Origin: a virus
Taxonomy: Duplodnaviria; Caudoviricetes
DNA: 28,520 nucleotides
Reading direction: 5' to 3' (one strand)
IMG/VR virus record: IMGVR_UViG_3300024228_000018
Location: 1 to 28,520 of that record
The position numbers and the translations under genes are program-made. Positions within the stretch are counted from its first letter, which is position 1; each line of letters starts with the position of its first letter. Below the pieces are notes generated by a model that saw only the letters and a list, made by a program, of their open reading frames with translations, searched no databases and was not told where the DNA came from. This document shows positions 1 to 11,637 of this stretch, in pieces.

Positions 1-1014
1 ATATTATTTAAAGGAAACGTTAACAAAGCGAATCCAGCAGCATATAAAGATAATGGATTAAAGGTTCACATGACTAATATATGTAGCGAAATAACGTTGC
101 ATACAGACGAGAATCATAGCTTTGTATGCTGTTTGTCGTCATTAAACTTATCTAAATATGAAGAATGGAAAGACACTAATCTTATATACGACTCTATCTG
201 GTTTCTTGATGGAGTTATGGAAGAATTTATTCAAAGAGCAAAAGGACTTAGAGGATTTGAAAACGCAATACGATCAGCTCAAAAAGGAAGGGCCTTGGGC
301 TTGGGGGTCCTCGGATGGCATACGTATCTCCAAGAAAAAGGTATTCCTTTCGAAGGTTTACTATCTCAGTTTGAGACTAGGAAAATTTTTAGCCAAATTA
401 AGATTGAAAGCGAAAGAGCTTCTATGGCACTTGCTGAGACTTATGGTGAACCTTTGTGGTGTGCTGGTAGCGGTATGCGCAATACTCACCTGCGTGCTGT
501 TGCTCCCACTGTTAGTAATTCAAAACTTGGTGGCAATGTCTCGCCAGGAATAGAGCCTTGGGCTGCTAATGTATTTACAGAGCAATCTGCTAAAGGTACA
601 TTTATACGTAAAAACCCTACACTTTTAAAGTTATTAAGAAAACATAAATTAAATACTAATGAAATATGGAATAAGATCCTTGCTGACGGAGGCTCGGTTC
701 AGGATATCGATGAGCTTGGTGATATTACTATGGGGCACGATATACCAGCTAAAGAAGTTTTTAAAACTTTTAAAGAAATAAACCAACTGGAACTAGTAAA
801 TCAAGCTGGCATACGCCAACAATACATAGATCAGTCGGTTAGTTTGAATCTCGCTTTCCCTAGTGAAGCAACGCCTAAGTGGCTTAATAAAGTGCACTTT
901 GATGCTTGGAAAAACGGAGTAAAGACTTTATATTATACGAGAACAGAAAGTGTTCTACGTGGAGATATTGCACAGCAAGCAATGAATGAGGATTGTCTTG
1001 CGTGCGATGGTTAG
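1..1014 (+). CDS. nrdA: Ribonucleotide reductase class I alpha subunit, C-terminal part (5' end outside window)
   Basis: Frame is open from base 1 (ILFKGNVNKANP...), so the track start at 70 is internal. Motifs: TNICSEI (catalytic N-x-C-x-E), VCCLSSLNL, RALGLGVLG, AVAPTVSNS, SPGIEP, KTLYY (radical-relay tyrosines) and a C-terminal CLAC redox pair. Confidence 0.95.
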   Translation: MLFKGNVNKANPAAYKDNGLKVHMTNICSEITLHTDENHSFVCCLSSLNLSKYEEWKDTNLIYDSIWFLDGVMEEFIQRAKGLRGFENAIRSAQKGRALGLGVLGWHTYLQEKGIPFEGLLSQFETRKIFSQIKIESERASMALAETYGEPLWCAGSGMRNTHLRAVAPTVSNSKLGGNVSPGIEPWAANVFTEQSAKGTFIRKNPTLLKLLRKHKLNTNEIWNKILADGGSVQDIDELGDITMGHDIPAKEVFKTFKEINQLELVNQAGIRQQYIDQSVSLNLAFPSEATPKWLNKVHFDAWKNGVKTLYYTRTESVLRGDIAQQAMNEDCLACDG

Positions 1015-1160: not shown

Positions 1161-1586
1161 TTATAAGTTACAATATTCTTCTTTAACATTAAAACAAGGA
1201 CACGCTTTTGCGGCAAATTCATTATGCCCATGAACAGTAGCCTCTGGGTTTAATCTCTTTAGTGTTTTTATCAAATCTAATAAGCTTTCTTTTTGTTCTA
1301 GCGTTCTAGTATCCTTGGCGATCCATTTGCCATTAGAGCCGCGTTCTGATTCAACACCTCCAATATAACAAATACCTATAGATCCTTTATTGTGGTTCTT
1401 AACATGCGCACCTTGTTTATCTATGGGCCTACCGTATTCAATGTTTCCATTTAAGGACACAACATAATGATACCCTATTCCGCTCCAACCTCTATCTCGA
1501 TGCCATCTATCTATGACAGCAGCGGATATATCTTCGCCTTCTCTTGTAGCAGAGCAGTGTATTATTATTTTATTTATCTTCCTCAC
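1161..1586 (-). CDS. Endolysin, N-acetylmuramoyl-L-alanine amidase (Amidase_2, T7 lysozyme-like)
   Basis: IIIHCSAT, IGYHYVV, GAHVKNHNKGSIGICYIGG and HGHNEFAAKACPCF give the His/His/Cys zinc ligands and catalytic Tyr typical of T7 gp3.5-like amidases. GTG start. Confidence 0.93.
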   Translation of the reverse strand: MRKINKIIIHCSATREGEDISAAVIDRWHRDRGWSGIGYHYVVSLNGNIEYGRPIDKQGAHVKNHNKGSIGICYIGGVESERGSNGKWIAKDTRTLEQKESLLDLIKTLKRLNPEATVHGHNEFAAKACPCFNVKEEYCNL

Positions 1587-2197: not shown

Positions 2198-5100
2198 TTA
2201 ATTTCTTTTTTTCCATTTAGAACCAGATGTTCCTCTTTTTTTCCATTTAGTTGTTCCTCCGAATTTACTTTTAGATTCCTTCTTTTGTACTAAGCCTAAA
2301 TCCCATTGACTATAACCTAATAGTAATGCAACTTTTTGCCAGTATTTTGTATCATCGCTAAAAACAACCCTTAAGTTATCTAGTTTTCTAACAACCCTAT
2401 CTACTGGTATATTAGTAAAAGCAGAGATAGATTGACCTACTGCATAGTAAGCAGGGTTGTCTAATCCAAATCCTTTCATTTTTTCTCTAGTAGTTTTATA
2501 ACTAAAAGCTCTACCTGTGCTAAGTACTTTTCTTATTTTAGAATCTACCGGCGGTGATATACTAAGCATTCTTAAACCAGCTTGCGTATAATCAGGTCTG
2601 TCTTTATTTGATTGCTTATTAATTTCAAATAATATATTTTTTATAGTAGAAGCAATAGCTCCGTAAACACCTGTACCTCTAAGCAAAGAATCTAACATGG
2701 AATTAGCAGCTCTTAATTGCTTATCTTCAATCATTTCTTCGTCATCATCTTCAAATAAAGCAGCAAACATTGCTGATTGCAAAGATGAGAAGATCATATT
2801 CTGCACTGTAGTGTAATATATTATTTTAGTTATATTAGTCTTATAGTCCCCTCGGCCATTTTTAAGATCTAAAACAGCCTTCTTAGTTAATCTCATGTAT
2901 TGCATAGGGGTGTTTGCAAAAGCCAGTATAATACGCCCTAATGGACTAGCTTGTTGTTGAGATACTCTATCCGGTCTGGATGACTGCTGTGTTTCTTCTG
3001 CTATCTCTTGAAAATCTAAAAAAGCTTTTTCTTTTGCAGAAGCCTCTGACATACCGTCTTCTTTGTACTTATTTATTCTATTTCTAATAAACGATGCTCC
3101 CCCCATTGCTATAGCGAAACTATCCGCTATTTGAGTAGGTAAGAAACCTGCTTTAAGTATTGCGCTGAGAGCGGCTTTATATTTATTAGTAGCCGTCTCC
3201 GCTGCTCTTGCAATGTCATCTGCGTTTACGTCATTTTTTAAACCAGACCTTCTCTGCTTTAAGAAATCAGAGTTGAACAGCATACTAAAGTCTTTCCAAA
3301 ATTGATCTTGATCTGCAAAAGCCTCTGCTGCAGCTATAGGGTTGTTATCACCCCAGTTTACAAAGTTTACAATAGATAATGTTTGTAATAAAGCTGATCT
3401 AGTATTAAAGAACATTATAGTACCCACAGAGTCATTTACCCAATTCATAAAGTTATTAGTAAGCTTGTTTGCTCCTATAGGTCTATTTCGACCTGTCTTC
3501 ATTCTGTAAAGTATATCCTCAAGAGCTTCAGTGTAGTTTTCACCAAATTGTAACCTCAGCTTATTCATGTTGTCCTTAGAGAATACTACATCTGCGTTTT
3601 GCTGCCAAGCTTCTAAAAACTCAGCCCTCTTAGTTGTGTTTATCATACCTATGGCATCAGTGGTAATAGTACCAGAATACCAATTACTAGTAGGTTCAGG
3701 ATAGCCACCTAATGTAGCCTGTATTTGTTTCGCAAATCTTAGCAACTCAGGATTACCCTGTACAACTTTTATTAAGTCGCTTCTTTCTTGTTTTGATAAA
3801 CCAGGTATTGCATGACCATTCTTAGCCCACAATATAACCCTTAACGCCATTTCATTTGTAAATCCGGTGGAGTTTGTTTTCTCTAAACCAGATGGGACAT
3901 CTTTAAAGCTTTTAATAAGTTCTTTAACTATCCCCGTCGCGTTCTCTTTATATGATTCAAAATCTCTATAACCTTTAGCATAAGGATCTAGTAATGCTTT
4001 CTTAAACCAAGCAGCGTGAGCGTCTCCTTTTTTTCCTTCCCCCATTAAAGGGTACAATAGCCCAACAAAATCCTCAGCTGAGTAAGGTACAAAAAACTTA
4101 AACTTATCTTTTGTTTTACCTATAACTTTACTTGCGGCTTCAAAGATTTTAGTGTTAGCTCCTATTCCAGTAACATCTTCTATTATTTTGTTAAAGTCTT
4201 TATTTATATTTTTAGAGAATTGAACCTTTGCCTGATGCACTTTGGATTTTACGTCGGCCTCTTCAAGAACCCCTTGCACCGCTTTAACATTTTTATAAGC
4301 GTCATCTGCAAAATAGAAATCGTTATATCCTTCAGCTACTTTATCAATAACCCATTGTGCTTTCGCTAAAGCTGTGCCATCGCCTAGTCCAACTATATTC
4401 TCTAATTTAATATCTAAGCCAATACCTTTTAAAAACTCGTGTATAGCATATTTTGAATTCGCTGGTCGAGCGGTTAAAATGTACACGTTGCTGTTACCAA
4501 ACTTTTTATTACGAGCCATTGCTTTGTCGAACATAGGGCCTTTAGCCCCCTGCATAACCTTACTAAATTCGCTAAAATCAAAGGAAGCACCTTTAGCTGT
4601 TAACTGATCTGCCTGCAAAGCAAACTCAGTGGCATTTATTTTTCCTTTTGTGCCATCTGGCAATGTATATAAAACATTACTTTTAGTTGTAGCCAATGTG
4701 TCATCAAAGTCCCAAACGCTAATACCTTTTTGAGTAGCATCAGGTCTATTAACCATAGCTTTAGCTTTGTTAAGAGTTTTGCTAAATTGCAACAATTTAT
4801 GCTTTTTCATCTCAGCTCTAACTTCTGCTTGCTGAGCAGGTGTTAAATACTTATACGTTCTTTGAAATCCTTGTTTGTTTTTGAATGCTTTAGTTTTGCC
4901 AAACAAAGACATAGTAACCACATCAGCCATATCAAATGGATCCCAGTTATATTTTGTTTTAGAAAACTGTATTATTTTTTTAGTTTCCAAAAAATCTTTA
5001 ACGCGCTGGTCGGTGTATCTTTCTTTACCTCTCCATCCCTTTTCCTTTTGAACTTTTCTTAAAAGCGCATCGAATTCCCTAGACACTAAGTTTACTTTAG

Positions 5101-8100
5101 CACCTTCCAGAAAGTTAATTAGTTCTGGTCTTTCTATTTTTCCATCGACAAAATCTTTCCATGCTTTAAACACCTCAACAGCTTCGGTTTCATGCTCAAG
5201 TATAGAGTCTTTAACCGATAGCCCCTCCATCGCAAATCCTGCTGAGTTCATTTTTCTTATAACTCCTCTTTGATCTGCACTTATTAAAGAAAGAAAACCT
5301 ACAAAAGAATCTCCATTCTTATTGTATATAGCTTTTTGAGCCTCATTAAGTAGCCACTCTCTAACCTCTGTAGCTTCTTCGTTTATAGTTTTAACATTGT
5401 TAATGAAGTCTGCTTTTATGTTAGTTACGTCAGCTAAACCTTGTAGCCTTACCCCATCTTTAAGGATATAAGACCTGTTTTTTTCTGTATCTACTTCTTT
5501 GGTAAATCCATATTTTTCAGGGTCGCCTAATACTGGCTTCAGTATTTTATCGTACACTTGCTCATTTCTTGTTATGCCATCAAGCTTAAGTGTTCTTATA
5601 GATCTGCTTATGTACCTTAAAAAAAGCTCTGCAACCTCCGCTTTCGCTTTGGTTCCCTTTACATTATTGAATGAAGATTTAAAGTTTGTTAAGGAATAAT
5701 CAAACCCAATAACTTTTTGTTGGTACTTATATACTTTTTGATGTTCGTTTATAGCGCTTATTAAAAACTTAACAGTATCTGTGTAATTTAGCTTGTTTGC
5801 TAATAGCTTTAATAATTCTGCTCTATATGTTCTAACGCTGTTCTTGTTTAAAGTATCATTGCCAGCATTCCATACAAGCTCTGCTAGACCTTTAAAATCT
5901 TTTACTTTATCAAGACCCTTTATGATATCTTCAACCACCTTTGTTTTAAAGTCGTTGTTAGAAGGTTTTTCTAATAAAGGATTTAAAGCTTTAGATATGT
6001 TTTGTTTTTGTTCGACAGTAACAGTTTTAGAAAATTGTATAATATCAAAGCCTGTTTTTTCGCCTTTGTATCTATCAAGTTGACTTTGAAGATCATTTAA
6101 TTGAGATTCTATTATAATACCCGCCTGAACGTCTAAAGAAGTATCAGGAGCTAACTCTTGTATTGATTTTAATTGGCCTAAGTTTTCCGCAGTTGCATAG
6201 TCGGCAACAATTTGCTTAGCTAATGGCTCAAGTATCTCTCTAAATAATTGCTTTTGTCTTTCTAATACCGCAGACTTTTTCCCCTTTACAAAATAAGTTA
6301 AAAAGGTTTTCTTATCGATTGGTTTGATTCTAAAAACAGGATTACCCTCTGCTGTTAATTCTCTACCAACTTTCTCAGTAGGGAATAACTTACCGTAGCT
6401 CTTCTTAATGCTTTTAATTGGTAAAGCTTTAGTTACTATGTCAAATGTATTCGGATCGTTTAGAAAGTCTATATAAGCTCCTGGGATGACTGCGTTGGGG
6501 TATACGCCCGTAATGGCCCCTGTTTTTTTCATTAGCTTTTTAAACAATTGTTTGTTAACATAGTTTTCAAGCCAAGAAACAATATAAGTATCTCTTCCTT
6601 TTTTAACCGATATAGTTTCAGATAGAGTACCTTTCTGCACTCTCACTCTTATTTCTTTTTCTAAGTCAGATTTAATGTCATCTATTAAATCCTGATCTAC
6701 TATGTCTAGCTCATTAAACGTACGCTGACCCCTTTCTACATTACCACTTCTATCTATGGACTGAGTATCTTTAGTAGCGACAACACCTTTAGCATCATCT
6801 AAATTAGATGTAAATTCAGTGTTAGCCTCCTTAAACATTAAAGACTGTCTAGTTTGCACTATCTTTTTTACATAACCAGCTAAATCTTTGTTTTTAGCAG
6901 GGTTGTATGTACGGATAGCAGCAATTACTTCTGCCCTTAGTATAGCCAAAGCATCTTGAAACTCTAAAGCCTCAGGCGCAAATTGTTTAAACTTTTGTTG
7001 AACAATAGTATTGATATAGCCCTCAAACATTGGTACTAATTTACGTTCCACTGGAGCAGGTAAAGGTTTACTAGCTGTGTATTCTTTTCTTTCAATACCA
7101 TACATGCCTACATTGTACTGGTCCATTATTTTTTGGGATAACGGATCTCTAGGCCCTAAGTCTGTTGTTCTTGTTGGTTTATCAGGTCTTTCTTTTTTAA
7201 CTTTTGGCTTAGCTTTTGGCTTTGGGGGAGTTTTAACAACAGCTTGTGGGTTTGCCGCAGCTTCCTCTGCAGCGTCTAATGCTGCCTCAGCTGCTTCTAA
7301 GTTAGCTTCAAATCTAGGATCGTTTGGGTCTGCGTTTTGTGCATTTTCATAATCAAGCTCAGCCTCCTCTACGGTTTTAGAAAATTCAATTCCATCTTGT
7401 AACCCAGCATCGCTTAAGTCAACATCTTTAAGAGCTGCTGCTGCTTTTGATGTTAATTTACCTTGTTCGGCACTTTGGTCAAACTCTTTAATGAAATTGT
7501 ATACATCTTTACCGGATTCAAAACCTATATTGGTATAACCTACAGGTTTAAAAACACCCACTACAGCATCACCTATTTTTTCAAATGTTGTCTTATCGTA
7601 GTTAATTTGTTTTTTACGAAGCGCATCAGAAAATACATTAACATATTCTGTATTATATGCTTTTCCCGTATATCCCCTCTCTTTCATTTTAGCGTCAACA
7701 AAATTCCTTTGAGAAGAGGTCATCGATTTTCTAAATTGACGAACCATTTTACCTTGCTCTTTTACGCCACCAATAAGCTTATTAAGTACTGGGTGTAGTA
7801 CCTCGTGCATTCCTGCATTAATAGAACCTGTTTTTCTAGCTATATCTTTATCTATAACTATCTTGTTACCAATAGCAAAAGCAGATACATCAAATCCTTT
7901 GTCTTTGTTATCAAAGTAAGTTTTTCTAGTTTCCTCACTTACTTTATCGCTATTCATTAAAGACTCAACCTCAGCTGTTGTAAAAACATCCATTTCTAAG
8001 CCTTTTTCTTTAGCTATAGTTTTTGCGGAGGCTATATTTTGCTCAAGGTTCATGTCAATAAGTTGCTGACGCGCCCCATCATATTCAGATTTAAAACCCT

Positions 8101-9605: not shown

Positions 9606-10961
9606 TTAAAGATTATCTAATGATCCAGAATTTGTATTGTTCCCAGACGGGTAATTATTTATAAAGTGGTTTTCTGCTTTACCACCAAAATCTGAGTTTT
9701 GTATATAAAACCTATAAATAGATTGAGGGTCGTTTACATCTACAGATATACCTCTAGAATAAGAGGGGTTGCTGTAATTGTACCTAAACAGTTCAGAGTT
9801 ACCATACATGTCTGCAAACTCTTTACGGGCCTCTTCACTGTCCTTAATCTCCTGCCCAGTTATAAACTCTTGGTAAAATTCAGCTCTACTTTTGTATTTT
9901 ATATTTTTATCAGTGGGATCCATAGAGTTGGCTGTTCTAGCTATAGCTGTCGCATCGCCAGAAGTCGTTTGAGATAACTGCAAAGCTTCTTGTGCTCTAG
10001 GCCCTCCTAGATTAATTTCGTCGCGTACTGCTCCGCTGTATCCGCCACCACCTCTTCTGCTGGCTGGTCTTTTATCATTTGCCCCTTGTATAGAGGATTC
10101 TGTAAAAGCGTTCATGTAACTATTAAGAACAGCATCTTTTAGTAAAGCTTCATTCTCTGGTTCAAACAAAGACGGGTCTTCTAAATTCAATCCACCTTGA
10201 ACAACAAAGTCATCTGATGCCAACGATAATAAACTATTTCTACCACCTTTATCTATAAGTTGACTAACCTGCTGGCGTACCATGTTTTTTCTAGCACCTT
10301 GTAAAACTTTTCCTGAATTATATACGTTTTCGTTTATCTTCATTATACTGTCAGCAGCCCCAAAGTCTTTTAAGAACGGTTTCTTTGTTTGTCTATAAGA
10401 TTTAAACTCTCCGTTTTCTTCGTTCCAAAAGTTTATACCACCACCTTGACCAATGCTCATTGTGCTTTCGCCCGTGTATATACCTGAAGCATCGCTTAAC
10501 GTTCCTATCTTGTTGCCTTCAGACAATGTACCATTATCAAAATCTTTAACATAATTTAGCTTGTCTTCTTTAAAAGCATTTAGCTCTGACGCTAGGTTGG
10601 TAAAGTTAGATTTAATACTATTCAACTGGCTAACTCCTTCCATGTACATAGGGTTATCCGCATCAAGTTTGGCTACTCTCATAGCCGTATCCGCATATAT
10701 TCTTTTTTGTTCTACTAAGTAATTTTTTACTGAGCTTTGCTGAGTAGGAGTTAATTGAGTAACATCAAACTCTGAATTTAAAGTGTCTATGTAGTTTGCA
10801 ACCTTGTTATTTATTTGAGCTTTTTTTGCTTGCCTTACAGCCCTGCTTTGAGCCCCTGCTGCTAAACTGTTGTTTAACCCCTCTTGAAAAGCTTGTCCCC
10901 AGGTTGATTGTTTACTTGCTCCTACAAGAGCAGCTCCATCAATTAATGATTTATTTGCCAT
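9606..10961 (-). CDS. 451-aa probable internal virion/ejection protein
   Basis: Long ORF between the 209-aa and 2467-aa genes. Helical, Cys-free, with an Ala/Gly/Gln-rich N-terminus. Function inferred from position only. Confidence 0.6.
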   Translation of the reverse strand: MANKSLIDGAALVGASKQSTWGQAFQEGLNNSLAAGAQSRAVRQAKKAQINNKVANYIDTLNSEFDVTQLTPTQQSSVKNYLVEQKRIYADTAMRVAKLDADNPMYMEGVSQLNSIKSNFTNLASELNAFKEDKLNYVKDFDNGTLSEGNKIGTLSDASGIYTGESTMSIGQGGGINFWNEENGEFKSYRQTKKPFLKDFGAADSIMKINENVYNSGKVLQGARKNMVRQQVSQLIDKGGRNSLLSLASDDFVVQGGLNLEDPSLFEPENEALLKDAVLNSYMNAFTESSIQGANDKRPASRRGGGGYSGAVRDEINLGGPRAQEALQLSQTTSGDATAIARTANSMDPTDKNIKYKSRAEFYQEFITGQEIKDSEEARKEFADMYGNSELFRYNYSNPSYSRGISVDVNDPQSIYRFYIQNSDFGGKAENHFINNYPSGNNTNSGSLDNL

Positions 10962-10974
10962 AATTTATATTTTA

Positions 10975-11604
10975 TTAGGAATTCAAGATATCCCCTAAAG
11001 GAGTACCTTGCATACTTGGCATACCACCAATTATTCCCGCAGCGCCTCCTACCACACCGCCTATTCCGCCTACTATTGCGTTTGTTGCGTCTTGCCTAGC
11101 CTTGTTTGCCGCGCCTAGTCTTTGCTGAGACATGCCCAATAATGTAGATTGTTTTTCATTTTCTGCATCTCTTGATATTAATTCTCCTTTCTTTTCGTAT
11201 AACTGTAAGTTAGCTGCTTGTTGTCGCTCAGCCATTTGATTAGATTGCTCTTGCCTCCCTATATCCATAGAAGCTTGTCTTACTTGCTGACTTTGTTGTC
11301 CAGCTAAGGACTGAGCTAATGCAGCAATACCAGAACCACCCGCGGCCCCTTGAAGATTACCCATTATGTTAACTAGTCCTTGATTAGCTTGTTCTGCTTG
11401 AAATTGAGCCTGTTCTTGATTCACGGTTAGATCTTCCATCGTGTTTTGCATATTTGTATATACATTTGAAGTGTCTTGCATTTCAAATTTAGCTTTGTTT
11501 CTATTAAACTCAGCTTGGGCTGCTCTTTGTTCTTCTTTTCTTTTTTTAGAACCGATGATACCACTGGCTATACCAGTTAATCCTCCTACTATTTGTCCTA
11601 CCAT
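10975..11604 (-). CDS. 209-aa probable ejection/DNA pilot-like protein
   Basis: Gly-rich hydrophobic ends (MVGQIVGGLTGIASGIIG; AIVGGIGGVVGGAAGIIGG) around a Gln/Ala coiled-coil core. This matches the architecture of the smallest podovirus ejection proteins (T7 gp14/P22 gp7 type) by analogy. Confidence 0.7.
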   Translation of the reverse strand: MVGQIVGGLTGIASGIIGSKKRKEEQRAAQAEFNRNKAKFEMQDTSNVYTNMQNTMEDLTVNQEQAQFQAEQANQGLVNIMGNLQGAAGGSGIAALAQSLAGQQSQQVRQASMDIGRQEQSNQMAERQQAANLQLYEKKGELISRDAENEKQSTLLGMSQQRLGAANKARQDATNAIVGGIGGVVGGAAGIIGGMPSMQGTPLGDILNS

Positions 11605-11637
11605 TATATTAAGTTTTTATAGTTTTATTATTACGTA

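Follow-up and report, generated by a model that had tools for sequence, protein, structure and literature searches.

The DNA analysed here, referred to as the window, is the whole 28.5-kb stretch (28,520 nucleotides, ~45% complete) of virus record IMGVR_UViG_3300024228_000018. Its minus strand codes for terminase, portal, capsid, tail and muzzle proteins, among which a crassvirus-like muzzle domain is recognized (Pfam E 1.6e-4), and for a giant multidomain protein that carries a fold of sigma70 domain 2 (sigma2) followed by a partner domain, C (Table 1). This sigma2-C module and the role it may have in early transcription are the subject of the present analysis. The relatives of the capsid protein (85 records among 50,697 phage records, 21–50% identity) belong nearly all to phages of Flavobacterium, Cellulophaga and Maribacter.

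Table 1. Position of the giant gene, its domains and motifs, and the preceding features (aa, amino acids; ORF, open reading frame).
Feature	Position	Strand	Remarks
Giant multidomain protein, 2467 aa	2198..9601	-	ORF; closes the virion module; probable ejection (cargo) protein
Conserved carboxyl-terminal domain, ~650 aa	2258..4210	-	Family-defining
Optional HAD-like domain, DxD motif at aa 1630	4220..4771	-	Pfam HAD E 0.18 only; in 24/70 relatives
QFSK repeat, aa 1189	6026..6037	-	Downstream module border; further copies at aa 1545, 1605, 1794
Partner domain C, alpha/beta, aa 951-1190	6032..6751	-	No fold match; candidate replacement of sigma regions 3/4
Sigma70 domain 2 fold, regions 1.2-2.4, aa 821-930	6812..7141	-	Fold match and weak sequence matches; contains 6830-7051
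EFSK repeat, aa 739	7376..7387	-	Upstream module border; putative processing site
HEVLH zinc-metallopeptidase motif, aa 599	7793..7807	-	Domain directly before the module; region matched in 69/70 relatives
451-aa protein	9606..10961	-	Second of three probable ejection proteins; position and size as elemo gp19 (450 aa)
209-aa protein	10975..11604	-	First probable ejection protein; family profile matches phi40:1 gp99, elemo gp20
CGTAAT late-type motif	11630..11635	-	~30 nucleotides upstream of the ejection-protein genes; equivalent place in G002, G004, G015

The giant gene ends the virion module after two smaller internal-protein genes, which is the layout of ejection-protein genes. In Cellulophaga phage phi40:1 the equivalent slot codes for three proteins (200, 549 and 1691 aa), each annotated on the basis of tandem mass spectrometry (MS/MS) as belonging to the virion; their counterparts here have 209, 451 and 2467 aa. 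The family profile of the first protein reaches E 4e-9 with phi40:1 gp99 (virion by MS/MS) and 2e-6 with elemo gp20 in a 9-sequence search, and for the second no sequence match to cultured phages was found. The giant protein occupies the slot of phi40:1 gp101 (virion by MS/MS) and of elemo gp18, and the profile of its metallopeptidase region matches the latter (E 4e-9, 7-sequence search). Because of this synteny the giant protein is probably virion cargo; the slot and the homology of the 209-aa protein support its placement among probable ejection proteins, in line with the injection proposed in the sequence-only reading.

An unbiased set of relatives was chosen via the carboxyl-terminal domain as the best 80 of at least 561 matching viral-contig stretches, 70 of them with a complete 5' end. 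No Pfam family is found on the giant protein at the Pfam cut-off, and no annotated phage record matches the sigma2-C module. The module is bordered by FS repeats; an FS-like motif precedes it in 41 of the 70 relatives and follows C in 52, compared with 6.5% of control windows. The repeats and their counterparts support the limits near aa 740 and 1190 that had been proposed for a released fragment. The HEVLH domain is, by its motif, a candidate self-processing protease. A further variable module without Pfam match lies between FS repeats at window positions 4958-6031 (aa 1190-1545) and is exchanged among relatives.

The predicted structure of sigma2 has the helical fold of domain 2 (regions 1.2–2.4), and chain F of the T4 gp45-dependent complex 7d7d is found in row 3 of the fold matches. 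The domain encloses the segment in which a sigma70 region-2-like domain had been recognized by eye, and that recognition is confirmed. Its sequence scores 14.8 bits with Pfam Sigma70_r2, below the 24-bit cut-off (best allele 16.5), and none of 20 divergent alleles is listed for this family. Across 54 diverse alleles the aromatic positions of region 2.3 are Y/F in 53 and Y/F/W in all 54, while the WW pair is present in none of them. ECF (extracytoplasmic function) sigma factors are likewise not known to have a WW pair. The SNLDD that follows the domain, which had been compared to the SLD of region 3, is not supported as its counterpart. The domain is sigma70-like by fold and is not a sigma70 member by Pfam score; no region 4 was found with it.

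Three alleles occupy the sigma2 place, with 69, 28 and 22 members and two unclassed (120 homologues among the matches listed, plus the query). They are 20–23% alike and are followed by C domains that are 76–80% alike. The sigma2 profile matches 50 of the 70 relatives, and most of the profile-negative ones inspected display by eye a (Y/F)(D/N)P..L..(Y/W) stretch at this place. A search of 1.84 billion representatives gave 108 matches; 59 of the 99 new ones exceed 1900 aa, and these include 57 with the family carboxyl-terminal domain and 42 with the peptidase region. Note that BFVD entries A0A218ML07_2 and A0A516M5M8_2, ~1480-aa pieces of large viral proteins, match the model weakly and possibly represent further giant proteins that bear the module.

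Domain C had been overlooked in the sequence-only reading. It is found in all 70 relatives, and its model (aa 951–1192) is confident (mean predicted local distance difference test, pLDDT, 79.6). The fold search of this model gave no convincing match and listed no sigma4 or helix-turn-helix (HTH) domain. No Pfam region 4 family matches the giant protein, although an unlisted family could still serve in this role. C is a candidate to stand in for sigma regions 3/4.

Since the early region is not in the window, genomes of relatives were fetched for the promoter search, which covered 35 of them. Their early genes are preceded by repeated copies of TTRCAA-N5-YACG-N10-GATAAT (type 1) or of ACGTYACA-N16-GATAAT (type 2). 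One or the other is found in 31 of the 35 genomes, 23 with type 1, 8 with type 2 (5 of which were chosen by the type-2 pattern itself) and none with both. The four others are three short fragments and G015 (L151), rated 99% complete and endowed with the module and a conserved stand-alone sigma, in which no early-motif site was found. Type 1 is present in 58 of 752 early-strand upstream windows, with 0.01 expected from 100 block shuffles, while TAnnTTTG, the Bacteroidota promoter consensus in the available text of PMC10309648, is not enriched (16 in early-strand upstream windows, 23 in the shuffles). The strict type-1 pattern is absent from 60/60 genomes of the family of one Flavobacteriaceae-labelled assembly, and the 6 type-1 sites in that assembly are all on contigs bearing the giant gene. 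In the parts of elemo, phi40:1 and Manatee Spring phage that were fetched no early-motif site is found, and their early regions contain TAnnTTTG between genes; sigma2 has no match in the giant proteins of these three phages, two of these proteins having been fetched in part. A type-1 variant with GTACAC replacing TTACAA occurs in G022 (36700–41000).

The early-motif sites are strand-specific, spread over 5–9 kb, found shortly upstream of start codons and of fixed spacing. Strand, spacing and position lead us to infer that the motif is a promoter. The same properties speak against the motif being a replication or packaging iteron and the domain a helical bundle, derived from sigma2 or just resembling it, that serves as a structural part or as a decoy, e.g., by binding anti-sigma or defence proteins. 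The weak sequence scores of sigma2 would be explained in that way, but the domain holds its place between peptidase and C across alleles that are only 15–30% alike, and we regard this explanation as very unlikely.

No phage RNA polymerase is seen in these phages. The DFDxD catalytic motif is absent from the window protein and from 79 of 80 related ORFs (one match, in the partial L186), the DFDGD motif of multisubunit polymerases is absent from the frames of the fetched genomes, and the window protein has no Pfam polymerase match. This bears on the idea that sigma2 is a mimic that sits on the host core polymerase and so stops or delays the transcription of host genes, the early motif being read by the host holoenzyme with the help of domain C or of another activator. 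The lack of a detected region 4 and of the WW pair would suit a mimic, as would the fast swapping of ~20%-alike alleles in front of a well conserved C, which is expected for a host-facing surface in an arms race. However, blocking the core would block the phage too, because no polymerase of its own is seen, and the full motif is missing from the 60 host-family genomes; a host sigma reading the -10 part alone stays compatible with that absence. Overall we hold the mimic to be rather improbable.

A stand-alone sigma70 of ~250 aa is encoded in 8/14 and 14/22 records of relatives and carries regions 2 and 4, the latter weak. In the 34 genomes that have it, 163 of 165 early-motif sites lie on the strand of the sigma gene: 141 are at most 15 kb upstream of it, 16 are at the far end of permuted contigs and 6 are shortly downstream. 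One site is 37 nucleotides upstream of the gene. Given these positions, the stand-alone sigma gene ends the region that the early sites would drive. The sequence-only reading had offered two actions of the injected factor, to redirect or to block the host polymerase; because a non-host early motif lies upstream of the relatives' only other sigma gene, redirection is now better supported than blocking.

A second motif, CGTAAT, is overrepresented upstream of the late-strand genes in type-1 genomes, in which the conserved sigma is present (47 versus 10.7, 754 windows), and is not among the top words in type-2 genomes. It is often found directly after the stand-alone sigma gene. With two classes of motif and two factors of sigma type, a cascade is suggested in which the first member has to be there at entry. 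In G017, G048, G080, G085 and G088 region 2.4 and the linker of the stand-alone sigma look degenerate, and this protein may not be an ordinary sigma. Directly upstream of the stand-alone sigma gene lies a gene for a ~206-aa protein with a carboxyl-terminal HTH (Pfam E 4e-4) in G001 (30741–31361; L088:11741-12361, minus strand) and at the equivalent place of G002 and G003. Before it, in the two latter, stands an imperfect inverted repeat whose GTGAC/GTCAC arms flank TATAATAGT; this repeat recurs where early and late transcription diverge and is possibly an operator or origin.

We propose that the giant protein, as its synteny suggests, would be packaged and ejected with the phage DNA, and that cleavage at the FS repeats, for which its own HEXXH peptidase is a candidate, would release a ~450-aa sigma2-linker-C piece. 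Sigma2 would bind the host core RNA polymerase at its clamp helices and open the GATAAT(AT) -10 element, while C, replacing sigma regions 3/4, would touch the upstream TTRCA and ACG boxes. The resulting holoenzyme, needing no phage gene expression, would transcribe the early region immediately as far as the stand-alone sigma gene, and the product of this gene would then serve the CGTAAT middle/late promoters. We assign a probability of roughly 0.55 to the injected sigma2-C fragment steering the host core polymerase to the early promoters.

Several observations weigh against this reading. The type-2 pattern is a single event (one clade in the capsid tree, 8/31 rows, SH-aLRT 99, quick tree), and the stand-alone sigma switches along with it. 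In type-1 genomes the stand-alone sigma is 56–87% alike, whereas sigma2 and C are ~28% alike at the median. A conserved stand-alone reader is a fair rival because of this difference: the stand-alone sigma, first made through leaky host transcription or brought in by being packaged itself, would read the early motif, and the virion sigma2 would clear host sigma from the core or do another task. Such a reader has regions 2 and 4, its clade follows the motif, and the six sites shortly downstream of its gene could suit it. But the gene sits at the downstream end of the motif region, where no host promoter is enriched from which it could be started, two groups of type-2 stand-alone sigmas just 23–32% alike share one early motif, and CGTAAT would be left without an obvious reader; we consider this course of events unlikely. 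Note that type 2 is also one clade in the C tree (0.97) and is split in the sigma2 and carboxyl-terminal domain trees (FastTree), a pattern consistent with an exchange of sigma2 in which C stays linked to the promoter.

In its widest form the injected-factor reading holds that marine Bacteroidota podoviruses of one widespread family begin infection by injecting a two-domain sigma cut from an ejection polyprotein. Its sigma2, which can be swapped, would match the host polymerase, and a novel fold in the place of region 4 would read a phage-only tripartite promoter. Early transcription would then have a third route in addition to the host holoenzyme and the virion polymerase, and this injection would be step one of a two-sigma cascade; we give this full version an even chance.

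Phage sigmas that reprogram the host core polymerase, such as T4 gp55 and those of the SPO1 gp28 type, are small and soluble, are synthesized once infection has begun and serve middle or late genes; gp55 has domain 2 without region 4 and depends on a separate partner. The module resembles them as a putative phage sigma for the host core and gp55 also in having domain 2 without region 4, but its sigma domain lies within a protein of 2000–3600 aa that is probably part of the virion, is joined there to an unrelated domain and is so placed that it could act first. Virion RNA polymerases are described for N4 and crAss-like phi14:2 (PMC13434306, PMC4496689, 10.1101/2020.03.07.982082; available text). 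As far as that text goes, there too the biggest of three ejection proteins bears the means of early transcription, and the muzzle domain of the window adds to the likeness; in contrast, no polymerase motif is present here and the cargo would be a specificity factor rather than an enzyme. Polyvalent proteins, large multidomain phage proteins with an HEXXH metallopeptidase like the giant protein, were proposed to be injected and self-processed, T4 Alt being cited as a polymerase modifier that is injected (Iyer et al. 2017, PMC5512222, accessible portion); unlike here, "sigma" occurs 0 times in the main text of that paper. A survey of jumbo phages handles phage sigmas as separate genes (PMC7824862, available part). 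Putative Flavobacteriaceae phages of Group 2 (marine, phi38:1/phi40:1-related) code for GroEL and a stand-alone sigma70 (Nishimura et al. 2017, PMC5332604, excerpted text), as do G001–G007, but the excerpted text treats the stand-alone sigma and mentions neither a sigma domain in a virion protein nor promoter motifs. No report of a virion sigma factor was found in the literature searched, which left subscription journals mostly out of scope, and supplements may list such domains. Phage sigmas are known as infection products, and the known cases of injected transcription machinery are either whole polymerases or enzymes that modify.

Elsewhere in the window, an N-acetylmuramoyl amidase gene (1161–1586, minus strand) converges with the end of the gene for the ribonucleotide reductase large subunit (1–1014, plus strand). 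The near-complete genomes G001, G003 and G004 code for primase-helicase, ERF recombinase, thymidylate synthase and ribonucleotide reductase; no DNA polymerase gene is evident in them by eye, no profile search having been made.

The predicted factor, promoter and boundaries are specific enough for direct in vitro testing. If the injected-factor reading is true, it would yield orthogonal pairs of promoter and sigma for use in Bacteroidota, together with a new DNA-binding fold. In this large family of at least 561 matching viral-contig stretches, an injected sigma would let a 60-kb phage seize the host polymerase before any gene expression and independently of the state of the host sigma factors, with its early promoters hidden from host regulation.
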